64,000 nt of DNA from Candidatus Merdivicinus sp. (GCA_050943495.1 JBMNPH010000007.1:35703-99702); one strand, 5' to 3'; positions 19,610 through 38,470 are shown, counted from the stretch's first letter. The notes: a model not told the origin generated them from the letters alone. A program made the numbers and translations.

Positions 19610-20689
19610 TTATGATTCATATAAAGAACGAATGCGCCGTTGTTGAGATGGGTGATCAAATATCGCTGTAAAATTTGCAACCTCGCTCAAACTACCAATC
19701 AAAGGAAGGCCCTCCAATTCTGTTTCTGTGAGCTTTTGCTGCAAGACTTCTGCCACACGATCCGCCCAAATCACTTGAATATTTCGACCAAAATAGGATG
19801 AGCGCTTCAAATGCAGCGGTGCCGTAAGGCCACTTCGATCGTGTAAATCCGCAACCGCCAGCTGTGCCTCTACCATGGCATCCTCCCGCTCATTTAATTC
19901 CTGAGCTGACAATGCGCGTCGAATCTGATCTCCAATATTTTGGGGAATCGGCAATTCTTTAAAAGCAGTTCCAAACCACTTGCTGTAAGGGGCATATTGA
20001 CCGCAGTACAAAAAACAGAGACGCATCAGCCGTTCTGAAATTCTTCCGCATACCAAACGAGATCCAATCTCGTCCCCACAATCACCGCAGCGCCGCAGAA
20101 ATGCCTGCTCTTCAGCAATCAGTGACCAATTGGAGGCAAGCAGATAATCGCGCACTAATTCCGGATAAAATCGCAGAGAACGGATCTGTTCTTCCATACC
20201 GATACCATCATGATACAGAATTCCAGCAGAAATTCCCAGCAAGCGATGTTCAGAACAAATCAGCCAATCTACTGCATTCCATTTCTCTGGATGATCCTTT
20301 CCCAAATACTGCTGCAAAAATCCAGATACTGTGTGAATCCAAATCAATGGCTTTACAGGTCCTTTCTCCAGCATAACCGGATGGCGGACTCCATGATCTT
20401 TCGGATCCGGATCGGAAAAATTTACACTATACCCTTCCAAAGAACATGGAAGATTCTGAGAAAGCACCTGCAGAATGTTATCCTTTTGAAATAAATCTTC
20501 CGCATTCAAAAATAAATACAAGCGCGGTCCCCACATATGGTCGGTTGAAACCTCATCATCATATCCTAAGACATCCGAACCATACCCCAACAAACCTGCT
20601 GCATACGGAATCTGCGGGAAATATTCCTCCAAAATCGGGCGAACCGCCTCTTGATAAAATTTCTTACATAAAATTCGACCTTTTATCAT
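19610..20689 (-). CDS. DUF4037-like protein (predicted nucleotidyltransferase-related, function unknown)
   Basis: The N-terminal pattern FYQEAVRPILEEYFPQIPYAAGLLGYGSDVLGYDDEVSTDHMWGPRLYLFL matches my recollection of DUF4037 proteins. The ATG overlaps the MFS stop (ATGA). Confidence 0.55.
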   Translation of the reverse strand: MIKGRILCKKFYQEAVRPILEEYFPQIPYAAGLLGYGSDVLGYDDEVSTDHMWGPRLYLFLNAEDLFQKDNILQVLSQNLPCSLEGYSVNFSDPDPKDHGVRHPVMLEKGPVKPLIWIHTVSGFLQQYLGKDHPEKWNAVDWLICSEHRLLGISAGILYHDGIGMEEQIRSLRFYPELVRDYLLASNWSLIAEEQAFLRRCGDCGDEIGSRLVCGRISERLMRLCFLYCGQYAPYSKWFGTAFKELPIPQNIGDQIRRALSAQELNEREDAMVEAQLAVADLHDRSGLTAPLHLKRSSYFGRNIQVIWADRVAEVLQQKLTETELEGLPLIGSLSEVANFTAIFDHPSQQRRIRSLYES

Positions 20690-21870
20690 TTCATTGCATC
20701 CTCTTTCATCGGAAAACGAAGCAACAGAACACTCATCACAAAGAACAGCACCATCGCTGCCGGAAGCAGTAAAAAGGCATTACCAGCACCCATTTTATCC
20801 ATCAGAATCCCATAAACTGCATTCCATCCGATGTCAAATAGGGTCGCTGTACTAATAATCATCCCAGTTGCAGTGGTAACCCCATTGACTGGATAATAAT
20901 TTTGAATCATCATGACCATTGTCGGATACAAAATCGAGAAAAAGAGGCCGGATGCGACTAAAATCATTAAGCCGCTGCCGCCAATCAGACCGCCTACAGC
21001 ATACAGGATTGTCGCTATTCCCCCAAAAAGAAAGATACTTTTCTTAATTCCCAGTTTCTGTACCACCGGTGCAAAAATCAACCGTCCTACCATGATGCCA
21101 CCAAAAAATAGGGCCAGGTAGGTCGACGATTGATCCATGGATAAGCCGAATGCCTGTGTACCAAAAGTCACAAACCAGTTCATAATACTGTGTTCCGCAA
21201 TAAAATAAAATCCAAAAGCAAATACAAAGATAAGATAAACTCGGTTCTTGGCAACATCCAGAAATCCAAATTTCTTCTGTTCCTTTTCTCCGTCCAAAGA
21301 AACTCGATCCGGAAAATGAACAAACATCAAAACGATGATCCCAATGACACCAATTACTAACAAAATACAGTTGGCGACTTTCCAAGATCCAAATCCTTCT
21401 GCAAATTTACCGGCCAGTTTCTGACTTCCTGTGGTGCCGAGTCCCTGGATAAAAAACAAAGTACTGACAATCGCAGCCGGTGCGCTTACAAATATGTAGG
21501 AAGTCATAACATTGATCAGAGTACTGGTCAATGTCGAAGCACCCATGCTGAAAAACATGCCGATTAGCAGACAGTAATAATTATCTGTCATCAAATAGAA
21601 GACAACAGCTGCCAGCCATAGACAGGCTGCAAACAAAAAGGCAGGTTTTCTCTTTTCCCGGTCAGCCAGCCGTCCGCCAAACAACAGGAAAACAAGGTTT
21701 CCAATATAACTCACGGTAATGATTCCGGAGAGTTGGGAGTTTGAAAGCGCAAAATGAGTGCCAAAAATCGGGATAAAAACGCCGCGCATTGCATCACTGG
21801 CACCTAAAGCAATCATCAAAACCAAAAATCCAATATAAGCAAATATAGCATTTTTTCGAATATTTTTCAC
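20686..21870 (-). CDS. MFS transporter
   Basis: 394 aa with about 12 hydrophobic segments and the GGRLADREKRKP loop motif between TM2 and TM3. GTG start after an AGGAG RBS. Confidence 0.8.
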   Translation of the reverse strand: MKNIRKNAIFAYIGFLVLMIALGASDAMRGVFIPIFGTHFALSNSQLSGIITVSYIGNLVFLLFGGRLADREKRKPAFLFAACLWLAAVVFYLMTDNYYCLLIGMFFSMGASTLTSTLINVMTSYIFVSAPAAIVSTLFFIQGLGTTGSQKLAGKFAEGFGSWKVANCILLVIGVIGIIVLMFVHFPDRVSLDGEKEQKKFGFLDVAKNRVYLIFVFAFGFYFIAEHSIMNWFVTFGTQAFGLSMDQSSTYLALFFGGIMVGRLIFAPVVQKLGIKKSIFLFGGIATILYAVGGLIGGSGLMILVASGLFFSILYPTMVMMIQNYYPVNGVTTATGMIISTATLFDIGWNAVYGILMDKMGAGNAFLLLPAAMVLFFVMSVLLLRFPMKEDAMK

Positions 21871-21965: not shown

Positions 21966-23537
21966 TTATTCCATTGGACGATAACAAAAATCTGCAAAAT
22001 CAGCCGGCTGCCGTCGTCCGGAAAGGTCTTGACAGCAAACCCCGACAAAAGCACCAGTATAGGCAGCACCTTCGACGTGTTCGTCAGATAACAAAGATCC
22101 ATCCAAAACCGGACCGATATTCTTCCATTCTTCCCCTTTTACCGCATACCGGAACTGAAGAGCGTGACCTTCTTTTACGGTAACTCCCAGCCGCACTTCT
22201 GCATCTTCCGGCAAAGGAAGATAAGTTCCTTCGGTCGGTTCCGAAAAAGTACCGTTGATGCAAGAAATAATATACAGATATTTTCCGCCGCCGCAATCAC
22301 CGGATACATTCAAATAATAGAAATTCCGACTATTGTAGTAGCAGACCAATCCGGCCATCTGCTGATGGCTGACAGGATGGAAGTCCAAAGTTGTTTCCGC
22401 TTCAAAGGTAAAGTGTTCCCATCTTCTGGCCAATAAACTCTGGCGGAAAAGCGAAGAAAGAGATTCCTGACCATAAAGCCGCAGATAACCCGGCCGGTCC
22501 GTAAAGGACATAGCATCTCCTATCGGCAGCCGAAGTGACTGGAACGAATCCGGAAGTTTTCCCTCTCGGAAAGAAACAGATTCTTCTTGATCCGGAAGTT
22601 TGACACTGGATTCTTTCCACAATTTCACTTCCTCACTGGGAAGAGGACCATCTACAACATACGGCCAGTCATTTTTCCACACCATTTTCTGGAGAGCGGT
22701 CTCCCGTCCTAATGGACACATCCCCGTATTTCCAGCGGGACGTGCACACAGATGGACCAAATACCAATCCCCTTCCGGAGTCTCAACAAAACTAGCGTGT
22801 CCTGCTTTCTTTAAGGCAGGAGCTGGATTGGCCTTGGATGTTAAAATGGGATTTTCCGGATGAATTTCATACGGACCAGTCAAATTCCGGCTGCGCGCCA
22901 CTGTGGCCGCATGATTTTCTCCAGTTCCGCCTTCTGCTGTCAGCAGGTAATACCATCCGTCTTTTTTGTAAAGATGGGGGCCCTCTGTCACATGAATCTC
23001 GGAACCGCCGAAAATATTGTAGATCTCACCCACCAGTTTTTTCTGTTCCGGCGAATATTCCTGCAAAACAATTCCGCCAAAACGATGGCGGCCAGTACGA
23101 TGTTCCCAAAGTACATTTACCAGCCATTTTTTATCTCCATCGTGGAACAACGAAGGGTCAAATCCGCTGCTGTTCAAATAAACCGGATCACTCCACTCTC
23201 CTTCTACCTCATCCGCAGTGACAAGATAATTGTGGACATCTTTCCAAATTCCTGCTGTGTTACGCACAATTGTATAAATTAAGTAGAATTTCCCATCCGA
23301 ATAGCTGAGGCAGGGAGCCCAGATTCCACAGGAATCCGGTACTCCAGCCAAATCCATCTGAGACAGACGATTCAATGGACGAGAAGCAAGCGTCCAGTTT
23401 ACCAAATCCTCCGAGCGGTAAATCAGTACTCCCGGCCACCATTCAAAGGTCGATACTGCGATATAATAACTGGATCCCACCCGTACAATAGAGGGGTCCG
23501 GTTTAAAACCGCGTAAAATTGGATTTTGTACCTTCAT
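21966..23537 (-). CDS. Glycoside hydrolase family 43 (beta-xylosidase/alpha-L-arabinofuranosidase type) with C-terminal beta-sandwich domain
   Basis: The N-terminus NPILRGFKPDPSIVRVGSSYYIAVSTFEWWPG is typical of XynB-like GH43. 523 aa, AAGGAG RBS. Confidence 0.85.
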   Translation of the reverse strand: MKVQNPILRGFKPDPSIVRVGSSYYIAVSTFEWWPGVLIYRSEDLVNWTLASRPLNRLSQMDLAGVPDSCGIWAPCLSYSDGKFYLIYTIVRNTAGIWKDVHNYLVTADEVEGEWSDPVYLNSSGFDPSLFHDGDKKWLVNVLWEHRTGRHRFGGIVLQEYSPEQKKLVGEIYNIFGGSEIHVTEGPHLYKKDGWYYLLTAEGGTGENHAATVARSRNLTGPYEIHPENPILTSKANPAPALKKAGHASFVETPEGDWYLVHLCARPAGNTGMCPLGRETALQKMVWKNDWPYVVDGPLPSEEVKLWKESSVKLPDQEESVSFREGKLPDSFQSLRLPIGDAMSFTDRPGYLRLYGQESLSSLFRQSLLARRWEHFTFEAETTLDFHPVSHQQMAGLVCYYNSRNFYYLNVSGDCGGGKYLYIISCINGTFSEPTEGTYLPLPEDAEVRLGVTVKEGHALQFRYAVKGEEWKNIGPVLDGSLLSDEHVEGAAYTGAFVGVCCQDLSGRRQPADFADFCYRPME

Positions 23538-23586: not shown

Positions 23587-25056
23587 TTATTTCTTGCGAA
23601 GACGGATCATTTTCACTTCATGAGGCTGCAGGATATCTTGTCTGGAATACGGTTTGCCAACAGGAATTGAAAGGCGTTTCCAACTCCGCTGAGGCTGGCT
23701 GATCGACTTTAAATGATCCAGTTCGCACTTGGTCGGATATTCCGGTGCACCCATTGCAACCCAATTATCAAAAACAGAAGTATCCTGATTCAAGGATGAA
23801 ACTTCCTCCTCATATTCGCCCTCCAGATCCAAGTCAAAAGACACTGTCTCAACCTTATCCTGGAATACATGATTGCGGCTAAGAGGAGTTAGCTTACTGC
23901 GATCCCCCAATGCAAAAGCATCCTGATAATAACAATAATTCCAAATCAGAACGCAATAATCATCGCCAGTTCTGGAAACCAGATGATTTTCGTCCGCAAC
24001 GAGAATTTCATCCCCCAGCTTTGACAGAAAGTAATAAGCCCAATAGGAAGGTTTTTTCAATCCAGAAGGATTCATCATTCCGAATCCTCCATGGAATTGA
24101 TAGAGATTTGCGCCCTGTTCCTCAAAAACATCCGTAAAGGTCCAGAAACCAAGCGAATTTACTTTCTGAAAATTCATTGAAATATTGTAGAGAATAAACG
24201 GCGCCATAAACATGGTATCATGAATCAAATCACGCGGACTGGGCGAAGAATTCCACTCTGTCAAATGAATTTCAGCCTGCGGATAGGGAGATTGATCGAC
24301 AATCTCCCGTATCATACTCAAATGCTGAATCGTAGAATCCTGTTTCATATATCCCATCTGCTTATTTCCCTCGGTATCCAACGGCCAATAGGTTGGATAT
24401 GGATGCGCGGAGAAAAAGTCAATTGGCAAATGCTTGTCATCACAGAAGCGGATAAAATTCTTGAGCCATTGCAAATCTTCCCGGAAGTCAGCACCGCTGG
24501 TTGATGGGCCTCCGACACGCAAACGCACATCAATTTTTTTGACTGCCTCAACAGATACCTCATACAGATGGCAATACTCTTCAAATGTTCCGCGCCAGAA
24601 AGAACCGAGGTTCGGCTCATTCCATACCTCAAAATACCAAGTAAGTACTTCCTCGATTCCATAGCGATCGATTGCATGGCGAACAGTCGCCTCTACCAAC
24701 TCGGCCCACTTTCCATAATCTACAGGAGGTGCACCATTCCCCTTCCACCAGAAAACTGTTCCGCACTGGGTAGCCAACTGAGAAGGCATGAAACCGAATT
24801 CCATAATCGGTTTGATTCCTACCGAAAGCAGGAAATCAAACAGTTTATCAAAATATCCGAAATAAAATTTCGGTTTTCCATTCTCATCCTCCTGATAGAT
24901 TCCCATATCATCATGGAAAATCCCATGGAATCGAATGTATTCAAACCCGATTTCCCACTGCAACTCCCGCAATTGATCTTGCCAGTCCGCTCGTAGACCT
25001 TCTGCTGCACGACCTGCTGTCACACATTTTGTATAATATCTGCTGTTTTCCAACAT
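23587..25056 (-). CDS. Glycoside hydrolase family 39
   Basis: Acid/base motif YFEVWNEPN and nucleophile motif IHLTEWNSS are characteristic of GH39 (clan GH-A). Confidence 0.8.
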   Translation of the reverse strand: MLENSRYYTKCVTAGRAAEGLRADWQDQLRELQWEIGFEYIRFHGIFHDDMGIYQEDENGKPKFYFGYFDKLFDFLLSVGIKPIMEFGFMPSQLATQCGTVFWWKGNGAPPVDYGKWAELVEATVRHAIDRYGIEEVLTWYFEVWNEPNLGSFWRGTFEEYCHLYEVSVEAVKKIDVRLRVGGPSTSGADFREDLQWLKNFIRFCDDKHLPIDFFSAHPYPTYWPLDTEGNKQMGYMKQDSTIQHLSMIREIVDQSPYPQAEIHLTEWNSSPSPRDLIHDTMFMAPFILYNISMNFQKVNSLGFWTFTDVFEEQGANLYQFHGGFGMMNPSGLKKPSYWAYYFLSKLGDEILVADENHLVSRTGDDYCVLIWNYCYYQDAFALGDRSKLTPLSRNHVFQDKVETVSFDLDLEGEYEEEVSSLNQDTSVFDNWVAMGAPEYPTKCELDHLKSISQPQRSWKRLSIPVGKPYSRQDILQPHEVKMIRLRKK

Positions 25057-25074: not shown

Positions 25075-26706
25075 TTATTCATACCGGAAGGAAATTGTAC
25101 GATCGAAATTCGTCATGCCGGTAAAGTACAGATTCATATTCTGACGGCTTGGCTCTACAATACCACTCCGGCTACGGATATAGGTATTGTCAGCAAATCC
25201 AGGACCAAATGTCAGATGTTCCTTGCCATCATCCAGTTCCACATTACCTTCTTTCACAATCAGCTGCATGCCGGGCTGAGCAGCACATGCAAAATGGCTG
25301 TTGGTTACTTCAACATTTGCCGGAATACCGAACTCAAATTTGAACGGAATTAAATCGCAGCCTTCTGCACGAACGCGCAGATCTACACCATTTTCCTGCT
25401 CAATCAGGTCCATTGTTACCTTCAGATGCGCTACAACCAGCGTACCACGCTTACTGTGATCCATTTCGTTCCACAGCGAAGAGCCAGGGAACTCGCCGAA
25501 GGGCAAACGATAGGTGCCATCTGCATCCATGGTCATCCGGTAACCTTCTTCCGTTTTCTCCAAAGTTTGGGTCAACAGATTGCGCAGATTGAAATAGCTG
25601 ATGCCGATTCGCAGATAAACGCACATTTCTCCGAGCTGAACGGCAAAAGGTGTGGGGTTATCCCGAATGAAGGAGGCTGTAAATTTGCCTTGGCGGATAC
25701 GTGCGATGCCAGAATGCGGATACAGAATGCTGTATTTTTCCGGAACCTTGGGTGCATACTCAGGAAGTGCTTCCCATTCCGGATAAAGCAGCATAAATCC
25801 CCACAGATCGCTCAAATCTTCATGGTAGCGGATCAAAGAATCCAGAATCATGGCAGCAAAGCCGAAATATTCCGGAATATTGCACTTTGCAGCCAGATAA
25901 TAGTAAAGGAAGTAATAACGGTTCGGAAGCATCCGCTGGCCGTTATCCTGGCGGGTGGAGTTCATGGTGAAGACGCTGCCATCCGGCTCATAGAAAGTCA
26001 TCATCATATCCAAATTGCGGCGGGCATAGCTCAGATAGCTGTCATCGCCGAGAAGTTCCGCAATCAGAATCATCGCATAGTCATTTACGGTATTATAGAC
26101 GCCGGCAGAACGTTCTGTAAATTCACCGTCTTCGCTGCAGTCCACACCCTCTGCAAGATAATCCTGCGCCCGTTTAAAGAAGTGTTCTTTTCCGGTAAGT
26201 TTCCAAGCAATCAAAAGAGCACTGGTATTTACCCAACGATGGTTAGGGGTATGGAATCCGCCTTTATAAACACCTTCCGCACATACTTCAATTAAAGCGC
26301 CCAATTTTGCCTTGATGTCAGGTGCTTCGCCGGCACGATCCATAATTTGATAAGCGCGCCACAAAGTCTGAATGCCGAAAGAAGTATCCGGTGCAGAGAA
26401 GAAGTTACAGTCAGAAAGGTCAAAAGTACCATCAGGACGGCGATAATTCTCGCAGAATACAAACGCCGCATCAATTGCTTTGCGAACATCTTCATTATGG
26501 TAATAAGCACTTTCTTTCATGCAGTAGGCAAGGATCAGGGGTTCCAGTGCATTCATACCGGACTTCTGAGAAGCCCATCCTGCATAGGGGTCCCAAATGC
26601 CGCCATACTCGCGGCGGGATTCATCCAATACCTGATTGCGGAGAATATTCGCAACCTGACGGTCACTGTGTTCGAGGAAGAGTGCTTTTTTTTGCTGATA
26701 GTTCAT
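25075..26706 (-). CDS. Uncharacterised protein, paralog A. Helical N-terminal two-thirds plus beta-rich C-terminus; candidate polysaccharide lyase or hydrolase
   Basis: Real coding signal, with an AAGGAG RBS before the ATG at 26706. Shares the motifs FHTPNHRW, CSEDGEFTERSAGVYN and EPDGSVFTMNSTRQD with the protein at 28895-30550. I recognise no family. Confidence 0.8.
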   Translation of the reverse strand: MNYQQKKALFLEHSDRQVANILRNQVLDESRREYGGIWDPYAGWASQKSGMNALEPLILAYCMKESAYYHNEDVRKAIDAAFVFCENYRRPDGTFDLSDCNFFSAPDTSFGIQTLWRAYQIMDRAGEAPDIKAKLGALIEVCAEGVYKGGFHTPNHRWVNTSALLIAWKLTGKEHFFKRAQDYLAEGVDCSEDGEFTERSAGVYNTVNDYAMILIAELLGDDSYLSYARRNLDMMMTFYEPDGSVFTMNSTRQDNGQRMLPNRYYFLYYYLAAKCNIPEYFGFAAMILDSLIRYHEDLSDLWGFMLLYPEWEALPEYAPKVPEKYSILYPHSGIARIRQGKFTASFIRDNPTPFAVQLGEMCVYLRIGISYFNLRNLLTQTLEKTEEGYRMTMDADGTYRLPFGEFPGSSLWNEMDHSKRGTLVVAHLKVTMDLIEQENGVDLRVRAEGCDLIPFKFEFGIPANVEVTNSHFACAAQPGMQLIVKEGNVELDDGKEHLTFGPGFADNTYIRSRSGIVEPSRQNMNLYFTGMTNFDRTISFRYE

Positions 26707-26719
26707 GGTTCTGTCTCCT

Positions 26720-28825
26720 TTATCTCTGCACAAAATGCAGTTGATTCTGGTTATTGTCCGAAACCAGCGTCATTTCGCCAGTCCGGTTATCCCAAAGCAG
26801 GTCGCATCGAGTATCAACCTGACAATATGGTTCACCATCGCGCAGCATCTGATCAAAACCGCCACACGCAAACCGATCGATTTCCCCATTTTCATCTGTA
26901 TGAAGGGCTACAACGCCAACATAGGTGCCAGTAAACCGATGTCCTTTGCTTTGAATATCAAAGTGTTCCGGTTTGCCGGAAAGAACTGACCGACTATCTG
27001 TCAGCACAATAGTTCCGTCCTCCAAAACTGCGCCATTTGGAACTGCATTTTTGCGGATTCCATTTTCTAACAGCCATTTCAGATCAAAAGGATGTACTTT
27101 TGCATATTTAGCAATTTCTTCAAATTGTGCGGTGCAATCCTGACCATCAAAGTCATGGGTTGCAATTCCATCAATAAAAACCGGATTGCTGCGAGCTGCC
27201 CGCAGCAAAAACGCGAGGGTCTCAGGCTTGGAATACTCCGGCCCGATAAACAGCATTTGATGGAATACATGTCCATTATAGCAGATTTTCCCATCGCAAT
27301 CTATGGTCAAAATGCCCGAATCAATCTTTGCACTTGGTACTAATGCACAAATAACGCCTGCATTCCACAGTTCATCGCACTTTTCCATAATGAAGAGTCC
27401 GCCGTTGATATCATGGCTGTTGCGGAGATATGCATGTGGATACCAGTTGGTCAGAGCCGGACGTCCAAATACCACCAGAAGATCCATTTGCGGACGCGGC
27501 AGATTTAATGCATTCAGCAGACGGATTCTTGTTTCAATTTTCCGCATATTGTCCAGAAATTCATCATTTTCCATATCAAAGCGATGTGGACGGACATCAT
27601 GGTAGGCGTGATAATGAATTCGAACGCCGTAACGGGCATCCCGCATTGCCTTTTCGTAAATGCATTCGGGAGTTGTTTTGGCATAATACATGTCATAAAG
27701 CACCGGTTTTGGATGAGAGCAACAGATTCCCATTCGGACAGGATAACAAATATCTTCATCAGTTTGCCCGTATTCACGGGGCAAATCCCACCACATACAG
27801 CCAGTCTGCCAAATCTCGTCATTGCTGAGCGAATTATGATAGGTATTGTGAAGGCCGTGGAATACGCCATCTCCATAAGTCCGGCGTGCCTCATCTGCAA
27901 CAAAATTTTCCACCTTGATGACATTGTCCTTCAAAACATCGAAGTAGCGGTTAATGGCAGCCATCCGGCGGCTGTCCTCTCCTTCGGGAATCCAACGCAT
28001 ATCCAGAATGCAATCGCGCAGAGAGGTTCCAGTTTTTTCCTCATAATACCGGGCAAAACCTTTGCCATACAAACGCTGGCGGAATTTAATTCCCTTTTGA
28101 AAAATCTCAACCGCATGGATAATATTGATGGATTTGAACTCATCCAGTCCAACGCCGTCAAAGGGAATATCCCGATAATAACCAATAATTTTGCGGAAGC
28201 TCTTTTCATAGTAATCCGTATACAAATCCGGACTTTGGAAGGCATGTGCAGTCAAAAAATAGATGGTTTTATCTGCATATTCCGGTCCAAGATCAACATT
28301 CACATCGACAGTATCCGGATTCGGAGAAGTTACGGTACAACGATCCGTTACCTCTTCCAAAGAGCCAGGACGATACACACCGGGTGCAATTTTATCCATC
28401 ACATATGCTGCAAATAAGGTACTGTTCCGGCATTTGCCATCCCGATCACCGCATTTAATTGCCCGATAGCTGGTGGAACCATCTGCATCCAAAAGCTGTT
28501 CCCCTTCTACCAGCAGAGAAATGGCAGTATCATCCGTCACATCGGTATGATCACGCCAAAGCTGCAGTCCAACTTTAACATGGTGTGCGTGTGCATAATC
28601 TGCCACTTCTGCAAAAGCCGGTGCGAGACGATCCCGGTCATGATAAAAGTCGAGTTTTCCCCGCGCTGTAAAAAAGATCAAATCAAAGCAGGTATCCCGG
28701 CAGATCCGCTCAATATCCCGCATATATTGCCTATTTTCCAGCGTATTTTCATCCCAAAACCAATATAATATTTCAGGATGATTTCGATTCTCCAAGGCTG
28801 GTACGATTTTCTGTTGCATTTCCAT
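26720..28825 (-). CDS. Uncharacterised 701-aa cytoplasmic protein (no signal peptide), candidate glycan-active enzyme
   Basis: Long ORF with an AAAGGAAG RBS, embedded between the two paralogs in the glycan operon. I recognise no catalytic motif. Confidence 0.8.
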   Translation of the reverse strand: MEMQQKIVPALENRNHPEILYWFWDENTLENRQYMRDIERICRDTCFDLIFFTARGKLDFYHDRDRLAPAFAEVADYAHAHHVKVGLQLWRDHTDVTDDTAISLLVEGEQLLDADGSTSYRAIKCGDRDGKCRNSTLFAAYVMDKIAPGVYRPGSLEEVTDRCTVTSPNPDTVDVNVDLGPEYADKTIYFLTAHAFQSPDLYTDYYEKSFRKIIGYYRDIPFDGVGLDEFKSINIIHAVEIFQKGIKFRQRLYGKGFARYYEEKTGTSLRDCILDMRWIPEGEDSRRMAAINRYFDVLKDNVIKVENFVADEARRTYGDGVFHGLHNTYHNSLSNDEIWQTGCMWWDLPREYGQTDEDICYPVRMGICCSHPKPVLYDMYYAKTTPECIYEKAMRDARYGVRIHYHAYHDVRPHRFDMENDEFLDNMRKIETRIRLLNALNLPRPQMDLLVVFGRPALTNWYPHAYLRNSHDINGGLFIMEKCDELWNAGVICALVPSAKIDSGILTIDCDGKICYNGHVFHQMLFIGPEYSKPETLAFLLRAARSNPVFIDGIATHDFDGQDCTAQFEEIAKYAKVHPFDLKWLLENGIRKNAVPNGAVLEDGTIVLTDSRSVLSGKPEHFDIQSKGHRFTGTYVGVVALHTDENGEIDRFACGGFDQMLRDGEPYCQVDTRCDLLWDNRTGEMTLVSDNNQNQLHFVQR

Positions 28826-28844
28826 GGAATCTTCCTTTCGTTTT

Positions 28845-28883
28845 GCGAAAAAGTCTGCCGGGGGTTCATGTCCCGACAGACTT
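28845..28883 (-). terminator. Internal terminator/attenuator-like hairpin between paralog B and the 701-aa gene
   Basis: On the minus strand, AAGUCUG-UCGGG...CCCGG-CAGACUU is followed by UUUUUCGC. Confidence 0.45.
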
Positions 28884-28894
28884 TCTTACTACAT

Positions 28895-30550
28895 TCAGTT
28901 ATCAAACGCGACCTTCTCAATGGAAAATTCGCGATCTTCTTTTCTGCAATAGGCGTTAAGATAAAGAGTCATTTCCCCACTGCCGGCAGCCAAAGCACCT
29001 TTTCGGCCAGTAGTTTTTGCATGCTCTCCAAAGACCGGTCCCAATAAAACACGATCCTTATTATTTTCCAATACAACTGTACCAGATGTCGGCATCAAAT
29101 TCATGCCAGCCTGCGCCATGCAGCGGAATCCCTCGCCTGTAATCAGGCAATTCGGACGAAGAGCCATTTCAATCCGGATCGGCACACGATCACAGGTTTC
29201 GGTATGCAAGCGGAAACGAATTCCATTTTCTGTCGGAATGGCATCCAGTACAATGGTCAGATGAGCAGGTTCTTTGCGTTTACGTTCGCAATGCTCCTTC
29301 TGCCACCACCAATCAGAGCTGGCTGGTTTCTCTTCCAGAGGCAGAAGATAATAACCATTTGCCTCATAATGCATCCGATAGCCGTCATCCGTTTTTTCAA
29401 TGCTGGTAAATATTGCATTTCGTGCATTAAAGAAATGACAATAAATCCGCATGGAACATTCGATGGAACCAAACATTCCGTAAAAGAAATTCTGACTGTC
29501 CCGCAGCAGCGACAAACTGATATCGTTGTTCAGAATACGAACAATTCCAGAGTTCTTGAAATAGCCGCTTTCCTGCACATAATAAGGAGAAGCACTTTCG
29601 GGCTCATCCAAATCCTGAAATTCAGGATGCAGTGCCATAAACTCTGCCATAGAAGTTTCCAGATCGCGTCCGCCATGGGAAATTGCCTGATAATAAAGCT
29701 TCATTGCGATTTCAAAGAAACCGGGATTGTTGTCAATCTTGCTCATTAACAGGTAATTGTCAACATAACGATCTGCCCATGCTTTCTGACCGTAATCCTG
29801 ACGGGTTGAGTTCATGGTAAACAGACTGCCGTCCGGCTCGATATAATGGCGCATCAGGTTTAGGTTCCGGATAACATAAGTATAAAATTCCGGACGGTTC
29901 AGATGCTCTGCCATCATAATCAAACCACGATTCGTGACAAGATTGTAAATTCCAGCGGAACGTTCCGCATACTCACCGTCTTCACTGCAGTCGATTCCTT
30001 CTTTGAGGAACCCTTCGATTGCATCCAGGTACTCCTGCTTACCAGTCAAACGATATACAATGGACAGGGCGCCACTATAAATCCAACGATGATTGGGCGT
30101 ATGGAATCCAGCATACATAACACCGTATGCGAGTTTTTCCATCAAATCCATCATTCTGGCACGAAAACGCTCAATTAAAACGGTATTTTGTTCACGATCC
30201 ATCAGGAGAATCGCTTCACCTAATGCCTGTGTTTCCGTACCGGCTGCCGTATAGAAATTGCAGTCGATATAATGCTTGGTGCCATCCGGATTCATATTGG
30301 TAAAGCAGAACTGAAAAGCCGCTTCCATCCGATCAAAAATGGAATCATCCTGATAATACCGAGAATACGGATTCATATAGAGCAGAACGCCGCTTGTAAT
30401 AATCAAGCATCCCTCATTGTACTCCACGATGTCTTCCATTACATGACGGACACCGCCATAAAATGGATCCGATGGATTCATTATCTGATGCCGCAGCATA
30501 TCCGCATATTGATCGTCTGCTCGATGAATGACTCTTTCGTAAATTTTCAT
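28895..30550 (-). CDS. Uncharacterised protein, paralog B of 25075-26706
   Basis: ATG at 30550 after an AGGTGA RBS. Carries the motifs FHTPNHRW, CSEDGEYAERSAGIYN and EPDGSLFTMNSTRQD. Confidence 0.8.
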   Translation of the reverse strand: MKIYERVIHRADDQYADMLRHQIMNPSDPFYGGVRHVMEDIVEYNEGCLIITSGVLLYMNPYSRYYQDDSIFDRMEAAFQFCFTNMNPDGTKHYIDCNFYTAAGTETQALGEAILLMDREQNTVLIERFRARMMDLMEKLAYGVMYAGFHTPNHRWIYSGALSIVYRLTGKQEYLDAIEGFLKEGIDCSEDGEYAERSAGIYNLVTNRGLIMMAEHLNRPEFYTYVIRNLNLMRHYIEPDGSLFTMNSTRQDYGQKAWADRYVDNYLLMSKIDNNPGFFEIAMKLYYQAISHGGRDLETSMAEFMALHPEFQDLDEPESASPYYVQESGYFKNSGIVRILNNDISLSLLRDSQNFFYGMFGSIECSMRIYCHFFNARNAIFTSIEKTDDGYRMHYEANGYYLLPLEEKPASSDWWWQKEHCERKRKEPAHLTIVLDAIPTENGIRFRLHTETCDRVPIRIEMALRPNCLITGEGFRCMAQAGMNLMPTSGTVVLENNKDRVLLGPVFGEHAKTTGRKGALAAGSGEMTLYLNAYCRKEDREFSIEKVAFDN

Positions 30551-30581
30551 CTTAATCACCTGCAACTTTAATGGATAAAAG

Positions 30582-31475
30582 TTATCCCTTAATGGAACCG
30601 ATTGCCATACCTTTTACAAAATACTTCTGCAGGAAGGGATACATAATCAGAATCGGAATGGTTGCGAAAATCAGGCATGCGGATTTCAGGGTTTCGGTTT
30701 CTAGATAACTGCCCTGATTCTGCATCATTTCCTCAACATCCATTACCATCTGGTTCTGCGCAATAATCTGCTGCAGCCGCATCTGCAAGGTTTGGAGATT
30801 GGGATTCTGAATGTAATAAAGAATATCCGAATATCCGTTCCAACGGGATACACCATAGAACAATGCCATCGTCGCCAAAACTGGCTTTGACAGCGGCAGC
30901 ACAATGCTGACCAACGCACGGATTTCTGATCCACCATCAATCTTAATAGATTCAACTAAGCTGTCCGGAATTCCATTAAAGAAGGAACGCATAACAATCA
31001 AATTATAAACGGAAATAGCACCCGGAATTGTAATTGACCAAATTGTATCCAACAAGCCAAGATTCTGAATCAACAGATAGCTAGGAATTGTACCACCGCT
31101 GAAATACATGGTAATCAGAATGAAAATTGTCATCCATTTCCGCCATTTAAAATTCTTTCTGGAAAGCGGATATGCCATTGCAACCGTCATTGTCAGGCTG
31201 ATTGCGACCTGCATGAGGGTCAGGAAAATACTGAACCACAATGACCGCATCATCTGAGGGTCTTTGAATATCTTTTTATAGGCTTCTAAAGTTGTATTTA
31301 CTGGAAGCACACCGACTGCACCTGAATTAACTGCCTGGCTGTCACTCAAAGAGGTCGCCAATACATGCAGGAATGGCAGAATGCAGATAATTGCAGTGAT
31401 TGCAACAAATACAACCAAAATGCCCTCGAAAATGTAGTCAAAGCGACTCATTTTCATGCCATTTTCTTTTTCCAT
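30582..31475 (-). CDS. Carbohydrate ABC transporter permease (LplC/YtcP type)
   Basis: Six TM segments and an EAA-like loop (IDGGSEIRALVSIVLPLSKP). AAGGGGAG RBS. Confidence 0.85.
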   Translation of the reverse strand: MEKENGMKMSRFDYIFEGILVVFVAITAIICILPFLHVLATSLSDSQAVNSGAVGVLPVNTTLEAYKKIFKDPQMMRSLWFSIFLTLMQVAISLTMTVAMAYPLSRKNFKWRKWMTIFILITMYFSGGTIPSYLLIQNLGLLDTIWSITIPGAISVYNLIVMRSFFNGIPDSLVESIKIDGGSEIRALVSIVLPLSKPVLATMALFYGVSRWNGYSDILYYIQNPNLQTLQMRLQQIIAQNQMVMDVEEMMQNQGSYLETETLKSACLIFATIPILIMYPFLQKYFVKGMAIGSIKG

Positions 31476-31490
31476 AAAAATTTTCTCCCC

Positions 31491-32438
31491 TTACCACAGA
31501 ATACCTTCGTCATTCATCTTTCTGGAAATAAAGTTCGTACTGGTAACCAGAATAATCGTGACGACTGACTGGAACAATCCCGCTGCCGTCGAAATATTGT
31601 ACCGTAAGCTCTGGATACCGACACGGTACACATAAGTCGCAATAACATCGGAAATTTCGGAAACGTAGGGATTGGTTAATGCGTACATTTTTTCAAATCC
31701 TACATCCAGCAAACCGCCGAGTCCCAACACAAATACAATAGCAATTGTCGGGAATATGGTGGGAAGTGTAATATACCAGATGCCGCGAAGACGACCACAG
31801 CCGTCTACTTTTGCAGCCTCAAAAATTTCGGGATTTACGTTTGTCAATGCAGCCAAATAGATAATGGTTCCCCAACCAGCGCCTTTCCATACGCCGGTGA
31901 ACAAGAACATTCCAATCCAAGAACTTTTCTCTGTCAGGAATGAAATCCGTTCCATACCCATTGCTGCCAAAATATTATTTACAAAACCGTGAGCCGAAAA
32001 CAATTGAATAATTAAACCGCCAACAATAACCCAAGATAAAAAGTGGGGAAGATACAAAATCGACTGCGTAATCTTTTTAAAATATTTCAGCCGAATTTCA
32101 TTTAGCATTAAAGCCAAAATAATCGGTGCAGGAGTATCCAACAGGAATTCTCCCAAACTCAGTAAGACAGTATTGCGAAGGGCATTTATAAAATCGGCAC
32201 TGGAAAAAAGTTCTTTAAAAATTTCAAAGCCGATAAACTCACTTCCAAATACACCTTGGAAAATGTTATAATCCTGGAACGCGATGACAATTCCAAACAT
32301 TGGAATGTATTTAAAAATGATAAAATAAACAATTGGCACCAGCACCAGAAGGTACAGTCCAATATCCGTTCTTTTCAAATGCACCAGTCTCTCTTTTAGA
32401 GAGGGTTTTGTTTTGACAACCTCCATGGTGTCCCACAT
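31491..32438 (-). CDS. Carbohydrate ABC transporter permease (LplB/YteP type)
   Basis: The N-terminal LYLLVLVPIVYFIIFKYIPMFGIVIAFQDYN and the EAA loop (VDGCGRLRGIWYITLP) are typical of this permease class. The start could be 32426. Confidence 0.85.
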   Translation of the reverse strand: MWDTMEVVKTKPSLKERLVHLKRTDIGLYLLVLVPIVYFIIFKYIPMFGIVIAFQDYNIFQGVFGSEFIGFEIFKELFSSADFINALRNTVLLSLGEFLLDTPAPIILALMLNEIRLKYFKKITQSILYLPHFLSWVIVGGLIIQLFSAHGFVNNILAAMGMERISFLTEKSSWIGMFLFTGVWKGAGWGTIIYLAALTNVNPEIFEAAKVDGCGRLRGIWYITLPTIFPTIAIVFVLGLGGLLDVGFEKMYALTNPYVSEISDVIATYVYRVGIQSLRYNISTAAGLFQSVVTIILVTSTNFISRKMNDEGILW

Positions 32439-32454
32439 CCTTTTCTAGTAATCA

Positions 32455-32484
32455 TAAGAGAAAGGGGCGTATGGGATACGCCCC
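32455..32484 (-). terminator. Hairpin with U-tract directly after SBP gene 1 (partial terminator / mRNA stabiliser)
   Basis: On the minus strand, GGGGCGUA-UCCCA-UACGCCCC is followed by UUUCUCUU. Confidence 0.5.
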
Positions 32485-32500
32485 CCGTAATGCCTCAGAA

Positions 32501-34198
32501 TTATTTCATATGTTCATTGTAGTAAGCTGTTTTTTCATCAATGATAGCCTGGCCACCAGCCTGCAGATACTGATCCAAAATCTGCTGATAAGTTGCTTCA
32601 AACTGATCTGCCGGTGCGGTAATAATCTTTACATAGCCATCCTCATAAATCTTATTGAGGTTAACTTGATATTTGGAAACAGAATCCATTGGTTCTTCAT
32701 AGTTCGGGAATTCACGCAGGTCGACAAATCCGTCTACCAGAGAGTTATCCATTGCTGCCTGATAGTCTTTTACAACTTCCGCTGCTCTATCCGGATCAGG
32801 CTGCTTGTCGATAGAGAGCCATGTTGCGCCTGCATTGTAAACTCTCAATTTTGCTTCGTTCTCGTAAGTGTTCTCCGGATGCGCATCCAGGATATAGAAG
32901 TCAATACCACCCCAAGTACGGCGAGTCTTCCACTCATCCGGACGATCTTCGGTAGGAATTGAAAGACGAAGTCCATCTTCGCTGTACTGCCAATGTACTC
33001 CTTCTACGCCGTTAATCATCATGGTTGCAACTTCTGGCTGTGCCTGCCACTCAAAATACTGCATAGCAAGATCCGGCACTTCGCTGAAGGACGGTACAAT
33101 GTTAAACATAGAGTAATCCGGATAAATATTCTTCAGATGTTTACCTTCTGCATTTTCAAACGGATCGATGACAGTGACATCCGATTCCGGAACGTTTTTG
33201 TACATAGTTTTTGCTTCATCAGATGTAATCAGGTTTGCTGTCAGAGAACGGCTGGAACCCCATGCACCTGTAGAAACAGCCTGTTTGTACATGGTATCAT
33301 TCTGATCCAATGCAAATTCCGGATTGATGAGTCCTTCATTATACATCTGGTTCAAGAACTGCATACCATCTTTCCAACCAGGAAGCATCATGTAAGGCAG
33401 AGTGAAATCCTGTTCTTCTGTCATGTTCGGATCAACAAAAGACCAAAGAATGGTATGAATTTCACTGGGCTTGGACTTAATCAGGAATGGATAGTTCTTT
33501 TCACCCAAATTGCCAGGATCCTGCTCTTTAAAGGTCTTCATGGCATTGTACCATTCTTCACGGGTAGTAGGCGCATCCAATCCGCATGCATCCAACCAGT
33601 CCTGACGAATAACGGTGACATGGTTAGCAGTATGTTTTCTCTGGCCAACGATAGAAATCAATTCACCATTGCATTTGCCATAATCTACAACATCGCCCAA
33701 TTTTGCCTGCAGATTCGGGCACTGATCGTACCACTCATCCAATGCAGCAAGGCCGCCCTGCGTAGCATACTGGAAAACAAGGTCACGATTATAAGTAAAG
33801 CAAACATCCGGGGCAGACTTAGATGCCATTAAAACATTCAGTTTGTCTACTTCCTCAGAACGGGGAACTAAAACAAATTCAATATCTGCATTTGCATATT
33901 CGCCAAAGCTTTCCCGCATATAATCGGTGAGATAGTTATTATCACAGGTCTCTCCATTTTCCGAAATACCACGGTCGAACAGTTCAACTTTCAAAGTACG
34001 GCGTTCATCACTGCGCAGAGGATTAACAGCAGTACTGGAATCAGAGGAACTTTCTGTTCCAGATGTAGAAGTTGTATTAGATTCTGTAGTGGAGGCAGTA
34101 CTGGAAGCACCATCTTCCGAACAGGATGCCAATACGGATGTTGCCAAAACCATTGCCATTAAAATACTGGCAGTTTTTGCAAATTTGTTGCGGGACAT
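32501..34198 (-). CDS. Extracellular solute-binding lipoprotein, large LplA-type sugar SBP (paralog 1 of 3)
   Basis: Lipobox VLASC, S/T-rich linker, 565 aa, AAGGAG RBS. Colinear with the two upstream paralogs. Confidence 0.88.
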   Translation of the reverse strand: MSRNKFAKTASILMAMVLATSVLASCSEDGASSTASTTESNTTSTSGTESSSDSSTAVNPLRSDERRTLKVELFDRGISENGETCDNNYLTDYMRESFGEYANADIEFVLVPRSEEVDKLNVLMASKSAPDVCFTYNRDLVFQYATQGGLAALDEWYDQCPNLQAKLGDVVDYGKCNGELISIVGQRKHTANHVTVIRQDWLDACGLDAPTTREEWYNAMKTFKEQDPGNLGEKNYPFLIKSKPSEIHTILWSFVDPNMTEEQDFTLPYMMLPGWKDGMQFLNQMYNEGLINPEFALDQNDTMYKQAVSTGAWGSSRSLTANLITSDEAKTMYKNVPESDVTVIDPFENAEGKHLKNIYPDYSMFNIVPSFSEVPDLAMQYFEWQAQPEVATMMINGVEGVHWQYSEDGLRLSIPTEDRPDEWKTRRTWGGIDFYILDAHPENTYENEAKLRVYNAGATWLSIDKQPDPDRAAEVVKDYQAAMDNSLVDGFVDLREFPNYEEPMDSVSKYQVNLNKIYEDGYVKIITAPADQFEATYQQILDQYLQAGGQAIIDEKTAYYNEHMK

Positions 34199-34296
34199 AG
34201 ATACATCTCCTTCAATATTCTTTCATCAATATCACACGAGATCCGACTGCTGATTTGTAAAAATATATCTGCAGATGATGGATAGCGTATGTCCAA

Positions 34297-34325
34297 ATTA
34301 TAGAATATTTTTGAAGGAATGGCAA
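34297..34325 (-). promoter_or_regulatory. Own promoter of SBP paralog 1 (TTGCCA-17-TATAAT)
   Basis: Forward tggcaa at 34320-34325 and attata at 34297-34302, 17-nt spacing. Confidence 0.55.
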
Positions 34326-34431
34326 GCTTCAATTTTTTCCAGCATGAGGAACCCATCATTTTTTTACATCAGATCTGATATGCCATTACTTTTTTACAAA
34401 ATAATGGCATATCTTTTAAGATTTGACAAAA

Positions 34432-36123
34432 TTAGGGGTTCAGTTCTTTGAAATACTCAGTTTTTTCATCAATAATTGCCTGTCCGCCAGCCTGCAGATA
34501 TTGATCTACAATTTGTTGATAGGTTGCTTCAAATTGATCTGCTGGAGCCGTCACAATTTTAACAAATCCGTCATCATAAATCTTATTCAAATTAATCTGA
34601 TATTTGGAAACAGAGTCCAAAGGTTTCTCATACAAAGGATTCTCGCGAATATCTACAAATCCATCTACCAGAGAACTATTAAGAGCATCCTCATAATCTT
34701 TGGTAACTTCTTCTGCTCTTTCAGGATCTGGTTCTTTGTCAATGGAAAGATAGCCTGCTTTGCAATTATATACCCGCAGGAATGCTTCATTTTCATAAGT
34801 ATTATCCGGCGGTGCATCCAGAGGATAGAAGTCTGTTCCGGACCATGTCTTTACACCTTGCCATTCAGCCGGTCTGTCTTCATCCGGGATTGTGACTCGC
34901 AAGCCATCTTCATTATACTCCCAATGAATTCCCTCTATACCATTTAAAAGGCGAGTTGCGACATCCAAATCGGACAGCCATTCAAAATACTGCATCGCCA
35001 AATCCGGAACTTCACTTGCCGCCGGGATAAAATTCAACAGAGAATAATCCGGATAAACATTCTTTAAGTGTTTTCCTTCTGCATTTTCAAATGGATCAAT
35101 TACCGTCACATCGGACTCCGGAATGTTCTTATACATGGTCTTTGCTTCATCCGAATTGATCAGGTCACCAGTCAAACCTCTTCCAGAGCCCCATGCACCT
35201 GTCGAGACTGCTTGTTTATACATGGTATTATTGCTGTCCAATGCAAACTCCGGATTGATGAGTCCTTCATTATACATCTGATTCAAGAACTGCATACCAT
35301 CTTTCCAGCCAGGAAGAAGCAGCCATGGAAGAGTAAAATCTTCTTCCTCTGTTAAATCTGGATCAACAAAAGACCAAAGGATCGCATTTACTTCCGTACC
35401 AGAACCTTTCAGCAGGAATGGATAATTCTTTTCGCCCAAATTGCCAGGATCTTCCTCTTTAAAAGTTTTCATGGCATTATACCATTCTTCACGCGTCGTT
35501 GGTGCTTCCAACCCACAAGCATCCAACCAGTCCTGACGAATTACTGTGACATGCTGTGCCGTATGTTTCCGCAAACCAGGAATTGCAATAATTTCCCCGT
35601 TGCATTGTCCATACTTAATGTTATCTCCCAATTTTTCCTGCAGCAAAGGACATTCCGTATAATAATCATCCAGAACTGTCAAGCCACCCTGCGTAGCATA
35701 CTGATATACAAGGTCACGATTATAAGTAAAGCAAATATCTGGTGCAGATTTCGAAGCCATCAGCACATTCAGTTTATCGACTTCCTCGGAGCGTGGAACC
35801 AAAACAAACTCAATATCCGCATTAGCATATTCACCAAAGCTTTCCCGCATAAAATCAATTGTATAGTTATTATCGCAGGTTGCGTCACCCTCAACAACTC
35901 CACGATCAAATAACTCTACTTTTAATGTGCGGCGCTCATCGCTTCGATTCGGATTTGCTGTTGAAGCAGTTCCCTCAGAAGTTGTGGATGCTTCTGTATT
36001 CGCTGATGCAACACTAGATTCACTGTTTTCCGTGCCATTTGATGTACAAGAGGCCATTGCAGAAGCGGAAAGAAGCATAGCCATCAGAATGCTGGCCGTT
36101 TTCGCTGCTTTGTTCTGAAACAT
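34432..36123 (-). CDS. Extracellular solute-binding lipoprotein, LplA-type (paralog 2 of 3)
   Basis: Lipobox AMASC, S/T-rich linker, 563 aa. Roughly three quarters identical to paralog 1 by eye. Confidence 0.88.
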   Translation of the reverse strand: MFQNKAAKTASILMAMLLSASAMASCTSNGTENSESSVASANTEASTTSEGTASTANPNRSDERRTLKVELFDRGVVEGDATCDNNYTIDFMRESFGEYANADIEFVLVPRSEEVDKLNVLMASKSAPDICFTYNRDLVYQYATQGGLTVLDDYYTECPLLQEKLGDNIKYGQCNGEIIAIPGLRKHTAQHVTVIRQDWLDACGLEAPTTREEWYNAMKTFKEEDPGNLGEKNYPFLLKGSGTEVNAILWSFVDPDLTEEEDFTLPWLLLPGWKDGMQFLNQMYNEGLINPEFALDSNNTMYKQAVSTGAWGSGRGLTGDLINSDEAKTMYKNIPESDVTVIDPFENAEGKHLKNVYPDYSLLNFIPAASEVPDLAMQYFEWLSDLDVATRLLNGIEGIHWEYNEDGLRVTIPDEDRPAEWQGVKTWSGTDFYPLDAPPDNTYENEAFLRVYNCKAGYLSIDKEPDPERAEEVTKDYEDALNSSLVDGFVDIRENPLYEKPLDSVSKYQINLNKIYDDGFVKIVTAPADQFEATYQQIVDQYLQAGGQAIIDEKTEYFKELNP

Positions 36124-36203
36124 TATAAAGTCATCTCCTTATCCAAAATAACACATTCCCACATTTTTTCATAACATTTATGTGATTTTTTGTGTATGTG
36201 ATA

Positions 36204-36232
36204 AGTATAATGATCTTCTTCTTATATTTCAA
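36204..36232 (-). promoter_or_regulatory. Own promoter of SBP paralog 2 (TTGAAA-17-TATACT)
   Basis: Forward tttcaa at 36227-36232 and agtata at 36204-36209, 17-nt spacing. Confidence 0.5.
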
Positions 36233-36444
36233 CCTTCAATATTTTACGTCAGCAGCCTTCTTGAAAGCATCTTGTAAAAAAATAACCTTTTACGAAAATA
36301 TGACATCTAAAACTTATATAAACCTTGTAAGAAGATTGTTCATTTTTTATAATTAATTTTAAAAATTAATTTGTTAGGAAATGAATGTAACACATTCATT
36401 TTTTACACTCATTTCCTATTTTTCTATCATTTTTTTACAAAAAA

Positions 36445-38458: not shown

Positions 38459-38470
38459 AATGCGATTTTT

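Follow-up and report, generated by a model that had tools for sequence, protein, structure and literature searches.

Two uncurated protein families with predicted lyase and glycosidase folds in a putative oligosaccharide-utilization operon of Candidatus Merdivicinus sp.

The stretch of 64,000 nucleotides of Candidatus Merdivicinus sp. analyzed here (GCA_050943495.1, JBMNPH010000007.1:35703–99702; hereafter the window, with positions counted from its first letter) contains three consecutive genes on the minus strand that encode proteins of 551 amino acids (aa) (paralog A, 28895–30550), 701 aa (26720–28825) and 543 aa (paralog B, 25075–26706). The best explanation of our results, to which we assign a probability of roughly 0.6, is that the 551-aa and 543-aa proteins are a pair of intracellular oligosaccharide lyases, and that the 701-aa protein is an unclassified exo-glycosidase with a triosephosphate isomerase (TIM) barrel, acting on an acidic, xylose-bearing oligosaccharide. 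We infer the lyase chemistry, the roles of individual residues, the glycosidase activity and the substrate from predicted folds, conservation and genomic associations. Calling of open reading frames (ORFs) placed all three genes where an initial annotation, made from the DNA alone, had located them, and their products are 100% identical to the hypothetical proteins ACOX6P_07200, ACOX6P_07195 and ACOX6P_07190, respectively, of a Candidatus Merdivicinus sp. metagenome-assembled genome (Oscillospiraceae).

The two flanking proteins share 37% identity over 528 residues (E = 2e-114), within the range of 35–45% that the initial annotation had estimated, and both contain the blocks FHTPNHRW, CSEDGE[FY][TA]ERSAG[VI]YN and EPDGS[VL]FTMNSTRQD that it had singled out. 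As ribosome-binding sites precede both ATG codons (AGGTGA 5′ of position 30550 for the 551-aa gene; AGGAGA 5′ of position 26706 for the 543-aa gene), these lengths are favored over longer, TTG-initiated ORFs. Inspection of the translations by eye revealed no N-terminal signal peptide in the 551-, 701- or 543-aa protein.

Scanning against Pfam (2025) and NCBIfam (June 2026) at gathering cut-offs gave no match for any of the three proteins, and single-sequence searches of the sequences in the Protein Data Bank (PDB) found nothing significant for the pair or the 701-aa protein, in agreement with the view that none belongs to a recognizable family. Below threshold, the 551-aa protein matches Lyase_8_N (15.9 bits vs. 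a cut-off of 24 bits, residues 57–135 only) and a chondroitinase-AC model, in both cases with its own N-terminal helices; the 543-aa protein has no Lyase_8_N match in Pfam, and Lyase_8 and Lyase_8_C are missing in both paralogs. Three distant family members pass the Lyase_8_N threshold, over residues 4–86 only, and a weak match is present in 17 out of 49 members. A profile of these 49 members retrieved from the PDB sequences solely the first ~80 residues of chondroitinase AC (E = 0.003). A phmmer search of the PDB sequences returned nothing useful for P0105, which along with one other member matches Lyase_8_N most strongly, and the 77-residue chondroitinase-AC fragment recovered a single 109-aa fragment from a large protein collection, leaving no polysaccharide lyase (PL) family 8 alignment that could be built. 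The Hepar_II_III_C and alginate-lyase domains of Pfam were not matched by the paralogs at E ≤ 1, nor by the 49 members at E ≤ 0.1.

The pair is part of a sizeable family. A word-indexed search yielded 531 relatives, nearly all named “hypothetical protein”; a hidden Markov model (HMM) search of 1.84 billion cluster representatives (50% identity) identified 1,363 members at E ≤ 1e-3, of which 587 reached E ≤ 1e-30, and a scan of one genome per species detected at least 559 loci. Members are mostly Clostridia (Oscillospiraceae, Lachnospiraceae, Ruthenibacterium, Hungatella, Lacrimispora, Eisenbergiella), with some Spirochaetes and Bacteroides. Some distant members (P0314, P0322, P0329, and similar proteins) have N-terminal extensions of ~40 residues, possibly signal peptides, and P0366 (943 aa) has an N-terminal extra region of 377 residues; the family is thus not confined to cytoplasmic proteins with a single module. 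It is unlikely that the putative lyases and glycosidase already reside in CAZy families without a Pfam model, an NCBIfam model or a solved structure (e.g., PL34, PL37 or a recent glycoside hydrolase family), which would leave nothing new at the family level. This possibility draws on the UniRef name “Heparinase II/III-like protein” of one member, the only exception to “hypothetical protein” among the names encountered, and on a “faint” precomputed match to Ulvan_lyase_N (PF25840, PL40) on one ortholog of the 543-aa protein, with no such match in the window proteins. It is countered by the database scans and the family profile described above, in which no sequence model assigned the pair to a characterized family, and by literature searches, which turned up no characterization.

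Structure prediction pointed to the fold proposed in the initial annotation. The AlphaFold2 model of the 551-aa protein, based on a 49-sequence alignment (predicted local distance difference test score (pLDDT) 93.2, predicted TM-score (pTM) 0.90), shows 12 helices arranged as an (α/α)6 toroid (residues 3–307), followed by a β-sandwich (326–547). The helix-rich and then β-rich layout described in the initial annotation is thereby reproduced, but with the boundary at ~310–325 rather than at about residue 370. When the model was compared to the PDB using Foldseek, ranks 1–44 were all occupied by lyases with a toroid and a β-sheet domain (probability 1.00, ~10% identity). These include the PL35 GAGases VII and II (8khw, best E-value of 3.5e-11), hyaluronate, chondroitin AC and xanthan lyases of PL8, the PL33 enzyme BtPL33HA (8r72, best TM-score, TMq 0.60), and members of PL15, PL17, and PL39. 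The predicted structure is that of the toroid plus β-sandwich lyase fold class (PL8/12/15/17/21/33/35/39/40). Beyond the N-terminus of chondroitinase AC, the PL8, PL15, PL17, PL33, PL35, and PL39 structures matched by Foldseek were not found in the same PDB by the 49-member sequence profile.

Residues G148, T151, N153, H154, R155, E184, E196, S198, Y202, D252, and R423 (551-aa numbering) are invariant in 251 sequences, W156, D187, S248, and R250 are conserved in at least 99% (99.6% for R250), and R197 is nearly invariant across the family. In the model N153/H154 start helix 154–169, Y202 starts helix 202–217, and the block T245–D252 precedes helix 259–272. The conserved toroid residues are located in loops or helix N-termini before helices 2, 4, 6, 8, and 10 and, as all precede alternate helices, they lie on one face of the toroid. 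The distance from H154 to Y202 is 48 residues, as had been noted initially, but the E-x4-Y spacing given there is in fact E196-x5-Y202; Y202 and D252 are 50 residues apart. The equivalent residues of the 543-aa protein are N155, H156, Y204, and D254. Within paralog A, FHTPNHRW (residues 149–156; 30083–30106, minus strand) holds the Asn153/His154 that we propose to be carboxylate-neutralizing by analogy with PL39, PL17, PL35, and PL40, and CSEDGEYAERSAGIYN (residues 188–203; 29942–29989, minus strand) holds the proposed catalytic Tyr202 next to the invariant E196 and S198. In EPDGSLFTMNSTRQD (residues 238–252; 29795–29839, minus strand), R250 and D252 are situated in a loop; D252 may be compared with Asp288 of PL39 and Asp358 of PL40. 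Spacing and secondary-structure position suggest that N153/H154, Y202, and D252 are equivalent to the catalytic residues of lyases. The only conserved histidine of the β-domain, H510 (codon 29021–29023), lies in the motif GPxF[GA]xH and is present in 88% of the family. Its position is taken by Asn507 in the 543-aa protein (codon 25186–25188), and by Asn in the relatives of this protein P0023, P0026, and P0242 as well as in P0013. This substitution of a candidate catalytic residue in the 543-aa clade suggests that the two paralogs probably differ in specificity, for the uronate epimer or the linkage.

The closest parallels in the arrangement of these residues are found in characterized lyases whose catalytic sets have been described. 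These are N186/H187, Y239, D288, and the β-domain H405 in PL39 (Dp0100), N245/W246, Y305, D358, and the β-domain H485 in PL40 (Uly1040), N192, Y246, and the β-domain H401 in PL35, and N238, Y291, and the β-domain H444 in PL33. In lyases of the Hepar_II_III type, the Asn(/His) and Tyr are ~52–56 residues apart at the N-termini of inner helices, and the catalytic His is often part of a metal-binding His-x-His. PL39 and PL40 have an Asn(-His/Trp), a Tyr ~50–60 residues later and an Asp ~50 residues further, on successive helical hairpins, and the positional equivalents in the lyase-like family would be N153/H154, Y202, and D252. The lyase-like proteins differ from them in size (~550 aa vs. 770–860 aa), show ~10% identity and no HMM match, lack the His-x-His/Mn2+ site, and have their conserved β-domain His elsewhere in the sequence, with its loss in the 543-aa clade; moreover, they are cytoplasmic proteins of gut Clostridia that are not tied to alginate or ulvan loci. 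The PL35 GAGases (8KHW/8KHV) and PL33 (BtPL33HA, 8R72) are likewise two-domain proteins of similar size (580–606 aa) with the Asn and Tyr 53–54 residues apart, but the family profile finds neither by sequence, the lyase-like family has no Hepar_II_III_C signature, and its neighbors are GH105, GH38 and xylosidases instead of glycosaminoglycan loci. Compared to PL8 xanthan lyase, the family lacks Lyase_8 and Lyase_8_C and has one β-domain, not two. The conserved N153, Y202, and R250 are spaced similarly to the catalytic Asn, Tyr, and Arg of PL8, but no His occurs near Y202, where in PL8 one lies ~9 residues before the Tyr.

To place the family in its genomic context, ORFs were called and clustered in 85 fetched loci and the window (86 in total), 50 of which are at least 15 kb in length (long loci). 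Permeases of the LplB and LplC types (a permease is encoded in 36 of the 86 loci) and binding proteins of the LplA type are the commonest neighbors; an AraC-family regulator is also found nearby, in fewer loci. A gene for a GH105 unsaturated-uronyl hydrolase, named GH88 in Pfam, is located within 10 kb in 33 of the 86 loci and 24 of the 50 long loci, and a GH38 α-mannosidase within the same distance in 23 and 20, respectively; at least one of the two is present in 35 of the long loci. Their identification as GH105 rests on PDB sequences (3qwt, 3pmm, and 4xuv, E-values of 1e-117 to 1e-98; YteR, 1e-27). Several of these neighbors exceed the equivalog cut-off of NF051900 “beta-galactosidase BglB”, for example with 472 vs. 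420 bits (L001:3453–4550, L004:8720–9790, L084:5894–6994, L087:6403–7509, and others). We rejected this NCBIfam name, as both Pfam and PDB point to GH105; it seems misleading, and PGAP would carry it over into annotations. Compact loci in Lacrimispora amygdalina and Clostridium boliviensis combine the lyase-like gene with genes for GH105, an AraC regulator, an ATP-binding cassette (ABC) importer, a haloacid dehalogenase (HAD) protein and GH38. The presence of GH105 within 10 kb in about half of the long loci is expected if unsaturated uronates are produced, and provides the strongest, though indirect, functional support for lyase chemistry. The same genomic logic, in which an ABC importer is combined with a lyase in the cytoplasm, a hydrolase for unsaturated uronyl residues and GH38, is seen in Ruminococcaceae UCG13, where an intracellular pathway for xanthan oligosaccharides formed by PL8, GH88, and GH38 has been shown biochemically. 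The operon in the window differs from that pathway in having xylosidases and the 701-aa protein in place of GH88/GH105 and GH38. The papers on xanthan degradation describe PL8 lyases and a Bacteroides PL-CE protein without detected activity, but not the lyase-like family.

Several observations weigh against a lyase function. Identity to every solved PL is only ~10%, and the sole link at the sequence level, to the first ~85 residues of PL8, falls outside the catalytic region. The His-x-His/metal motif in the β-domain of PL39, PL40, and Hepar_II_III proteins is absent from the family, which has no second conserved His, and H510, missing in the 543-aa clade, follows the Tyr by 308 residues, compared to ~155–165 in known families. 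No GH105 or GH88 gene is found in the operon of the window or in the orthologous contigs L003, L169, and L172, though a lyase product usually needs such an enzyme. Neighboring genes vary widely among loci (GH38, GH31, GH2, xylosidases), and no single substrate thus fits the whole family. Finally, the paper on PL33 shows that the human uronyl C5-epimerase DS-epi1 has its fold and Tyr/His apparatus in common with toroid lyases. This last point is relevant to an explanation in which the paralogs use the lyase fold otherwise, as C5-epimerases or as hydratases or hydrolases on unsaturated or saturated uronides, without cleavage by β-elimination. We consider this improbable. Very weak matches to C5-epim_C in two family members, to GH127 in one and to GH88 in one, as well as the occurrence of GH127 lower in the Foldseek list, would agree with it, and it would account for an operon without a GH105 to consume an unsaturated product. 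Yet 44 lyase chains outrank any hydrolase in the Foldseek list, where GH127 comes next with a TM-score of only ~0.34; GH105 is encoded near family members in about half of the long loci, and an epimerase acting on oligosaccharides has no obvious use in a cytoplasmic catabolic operon. Taken together, three independent lines, namely fold, conservation and the GH105 context, support the initial annotation in proposing a distant, unclassified lyase-like pair with a toroid, a β-sandwich and an Asn/His…Tyr apparatus.

Two other protein types recur in these neighborhoods. An unannotated family of ~735 aa adjoins the lyase-like family in 8 loci (L014:3961–6165, L004:19924–21662, L170:19989–21674, and L013:3529–5838 among them). 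It carries the motifs GAHNRSM and HHGHSDENS and a sub-threshold match to Hepar_II_III_C (E = 0.0024), and is probably a second uncurated family of toroid-type lyases. A xylose-isomerase-like TIM-barrel protein (AP_endonuc_2) is repeatedly encoded next to GH105, both in lyase-like loci and in 701 loci (L005:11646–12587; L086:9066–9890; L087:12038–12859 and 14121–15110; L069:17991–18977), and may isomerize the unsaturated uronate once it is released.

The 701-aa protein, in which the initial annotation could name no motif, has a nameable fold. Its AlphaFold model (pLDDT 94.2, pTM 0.93) comprises a TIM barrel with an inserted β-domain (residues ~101–199), an α/β domain and a C-terminal β-sandwich. 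Foldseek ranked the glycoside hydrolase (GH) family 106 rhamnosidase 6q2f first (E = 2e-13, TMq 0.52, 10% identity), followed by GH112 phosphorylase, a GH35-type β-1,2-glucosyltransferase, many GH42 β-galactosidases and GH164. With GH106, GH112, and GH42 it has in common the TIM barrel, the α/β domain and the β-sandwich (Foldseek E-values of 2e-13 to 1e-7), but identities are 7–11%, TM-scores reach only 0.40–0.52, and the barrel carries the β insertion of ~100 residues. Likeness to GH42 is limited to structure (TM-score of 0.40–0.43), as Pfam finds no Glyco_hydro_42, 42M or 42C domain, and neither phmmer nor a 47-sequence profile retrieved 6q2f or another GH from the PDB sequences. Alignment and secondary-structure assignment with DSSP show that the invariant D228-E229 follow strand 224–228 and the invariant D356-E357 follow strand 353–356. 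If, as the model suggests, these are barrel strands 4 and 7, the placement of E229 and E357 would correspond to the arrangement in clan GH-A, with a D-E instead of the usual N-E motif at strand 4.

A word-indexed search identified 143 relatives of the 701-aa protein in Clostridia and Bacteroidota, all unnamed. A few of these (P0178, P0191, and P0198; ~896 aa) are fused to SGNH/GDSL esterase domains (PF13472, PF00657), which hints at an acetylated natural substrate. Homologs are found beside GH105 and PL22 in Vallitalea pronyensis (L086), beside GH105 in a Lachnospiraceae metagenome-assembled genome (L087), and beside GH105 and GH115 in a further Clostridia contig (L173). In 83 further loci, 80 of them on environmental metagenome contigs, the commonest neighbors are GH28, NPCBM-GH27, sulfatases, GH92, GH3, GH29, and GH78. 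These neighbors suggest that the 701 family also belongs to acidic-glycan catabolism. In Clostridia loci, unannotated proteins of ~820 aa with only a weak PA14 match flank GH105 and the 701 homolog (L087:3909–6377 and 7512–9977; L173:21090–22106), adding one more uncurated family to these pathways. A 705-aa protein adjoining P0013 (L171) resembled the 701-aa protein in size, but proved unrelated on comparison.

The order of the three genes is conserved. A lyase-like gene, a 701 homolog and a second lyase-like gene recur in L003 and L169 with 62–66% protein identity. In L003, BLAST confirmed both flanking genes and an extra 575-aa gene as paralogs; in L169, the flanking 548-aa gene corresponds to P0002 (66% identical to the 551-aa protein), and unassigned proteins of 542 and 553 aa match in size. 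In L172, an unassigned 552-aa protein comes before a 701 homolog with 57% identity; unassigned proteins of 543 and 546 aa and a DUF1961 protein lie further downstream. One might read the gene order as fortuitous, the three proteins as not forming one pathway and the paralogs as non-catalytic, with a binding or regulatory role, on account of a strong, terminator-like hairpin that separates the 551-aa gene from the 701-aa gene. This GC-rich element with a U-tract (28850–28885, minus strand; 15-bp main stem, −24.8 kcal/mol, z = −5.8) looks like an internal terminator or an mRNA processing or stability element, and has no counterpart in L003, where just 13 nt separate the orthologous genes. We regard that reading as most improbable in view of the conserved order in L003 and L169, the similar-sized unassigned proteins around the 701 homolog of L172, the short intergenic gaps with ribosome-binding sites, and the eleven residues that are invariant in 251 homologs, those of the toroid being on one face as is typical of an active site.

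With respect to the substrate of the proposed lyase and glycosidase trio, the neighboring genes provide some indications. As recognized initially, the trio is followed by genes for a GH39 (23587–25056, minus strand; Pfam E = 1e-100; PDB 2bs9/1px8, E = 6e-99) and a GH43 with GH43_C2 (21966–23537, minus strand; Pfam E = 7e-99; PDB 2exh, E = 6e-181), and in the PDB sequence search these are close to the characterized β-xylosidases XynB1 and XynB3, respectively. A substrate of the gum-arabic or arabinogalactan type, offered as speculation in the initial annotation, was set aside on account of this resemblance; no arabinogalactan-specific enzyme is present. The contigs L003, L169, and L172 all lack the xylosidases; alongside the lyase-like genes they carry a DUF1961 (YesU-like) gene and a further gene for a protein of ~550–575 aa (L003:15489–17956; L169:12740–15419; L172:13342–14955), which is the extra paralog confirmed by BLAST in L003 and unassigned in L169 and L172. 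The xylosidases therefore seem to have been added, in the window only, to a core module that is conserved. The most economical, if tentative, candidate substrate is an oligosaccharide that is acidic and bears xylose, for instance aldouronates of glucuronoxylan or fragments of xylogalacturonan/pectic material. A connection to the fuco-glucuronomannan lyase FdlA was dismissed, since FdlA is a β-helix enzyme.

In Paenibacillus and Geobacillus, the clusters for aldouronate utilization consist of an importer of the LplA/LplB/YtcP type, GH67 and GH39/GH43 xylosidases. The window has in common with these the importer type, a regulator of the AraC class and the XynB1/XynB3-like xylosidases, but has no GH67 or GH115 α-glucuronidase, and the trio occupies the position of GH67. 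This position would be explained if the paralogs eliminated the 4-O-methyl (or another 4-O-substituent) of the α-1,2-linked (Me)GlcA on imported aldouronates, without cleaving a glycosidic bond; the resulting hexenuronosyl side chain would be removed by the 701-aa enzyme or a GH105 encoded elsewhere. We consider this variant highly unlikely; if true, it would constitute a lyase-based alternative to the GH67/GH115 α-glucuronidases for xylan debranching. In the preferred reading, cleavage by an oligosaccharide lyase pair, the LplABC-type ABC importer with its three binding proteins would take the acidic oligosaccharide into the cytoplasm, where both paralogs would most likely act by β-elimination, breaking the bond at the O4 position of a uronic acid. 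Asn153/His154 would neutralize the carboxylate, and Tyr202 would protonate the leaving group and perhaps also abstract H5, assisted by Asp252 and Arg250 and, in the 551-aa paralog only, by the β-domain His510. The 701-aa exo-glycosidase, with Glu229 and Glu357 as candidate catalytic residues, would take off a residue, neutral or uronyl, that becomes exposed either before the lyase acts or afterwards, and the GH39 and GH43 β-xylosidases would finish off the xylose.

The complete gene string (19610–40759), all on the minus strand, appears to be an oligosaccharide-utilization operon of a gut Oscillospiraceae bacterium. In the direction of transcription it starts with a 762-aa membrane-anchored AraC-family regulator (YesS-like, 38471–40759), after which a strong terminator-like hairpin is found. 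Three tandem paralogous lipoprotein solute-binding proteins of ~565 aa (LplA-like; 36445–38154, 34432–36123, and 32501–34198) and two ABC permeases (LplB and LplC/YtcP types; 31491–32438 and 30582–31475) follow, the latter clustering with permeases that adjoin lyase-like family members elsewhere. After the 551-aa, 701-aa, 543-aa, GH39, and GH43 genes, the 3′ end of the string is formed by genes for a major facilitator superfamily (MFS) transporter (20686–21870) and a DUF4037 protein (19610–20689). A sigma-70-like match precedes each of the binding-protein genes (38236, 36232, and 34325), and downstream of the third is a terminator-like hairpin. The window has three binding proteins for a single permease pair; in L003 and L169, the orthologous loci, there is one. 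Housekeeping genes (infB, an nrnA-like gene, truB, and ribF) bound the island on one side, and a gene of the methionine gamma-lyase family on the other. G+C content is 0.37–0.42 over the regulator, binding-protein and permease genes (30001–40000), 0.45–0.46 over the enzyme genes and 0.47–0.54 in the flanking housekeeping genes, from which the island may be mosaic or horizontally acquired.

The fold and the probable chemistry are well known. What appears new is a sizeable uncurated family that none of the sequence-based searches made here could place in a known family, with a compact two-domain form, a variant β-domain apparatus and a pairing with an equally uncurated GH-like family. The pair and the 701-aa protein are solid, experimentally tractable candidates for two new CAZy families in gut Firmicutes, and not a conceptual surprise. 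If the preferred reading is correct, the pair would found a new polysaccharide lyase family that is widespread, mostly in gut and anaerobic-digester Clostridia and in some Spirochaetes, and the 701-aa protein would found a new glycoside hydrolase family. The compact loci of the lyase-like gene with GH105, GH38 and an ABC importer in cultured Lacrimispora and Clostridium would offer a direct experimental entry point. Because both families are annotated only as hypothetical proteins, the use of acidic glycans (xanthan-like, pectic and glucuronoxylan-derived) by Firmicutes is probably under-counted in CAZyme-based microbiome profiling.

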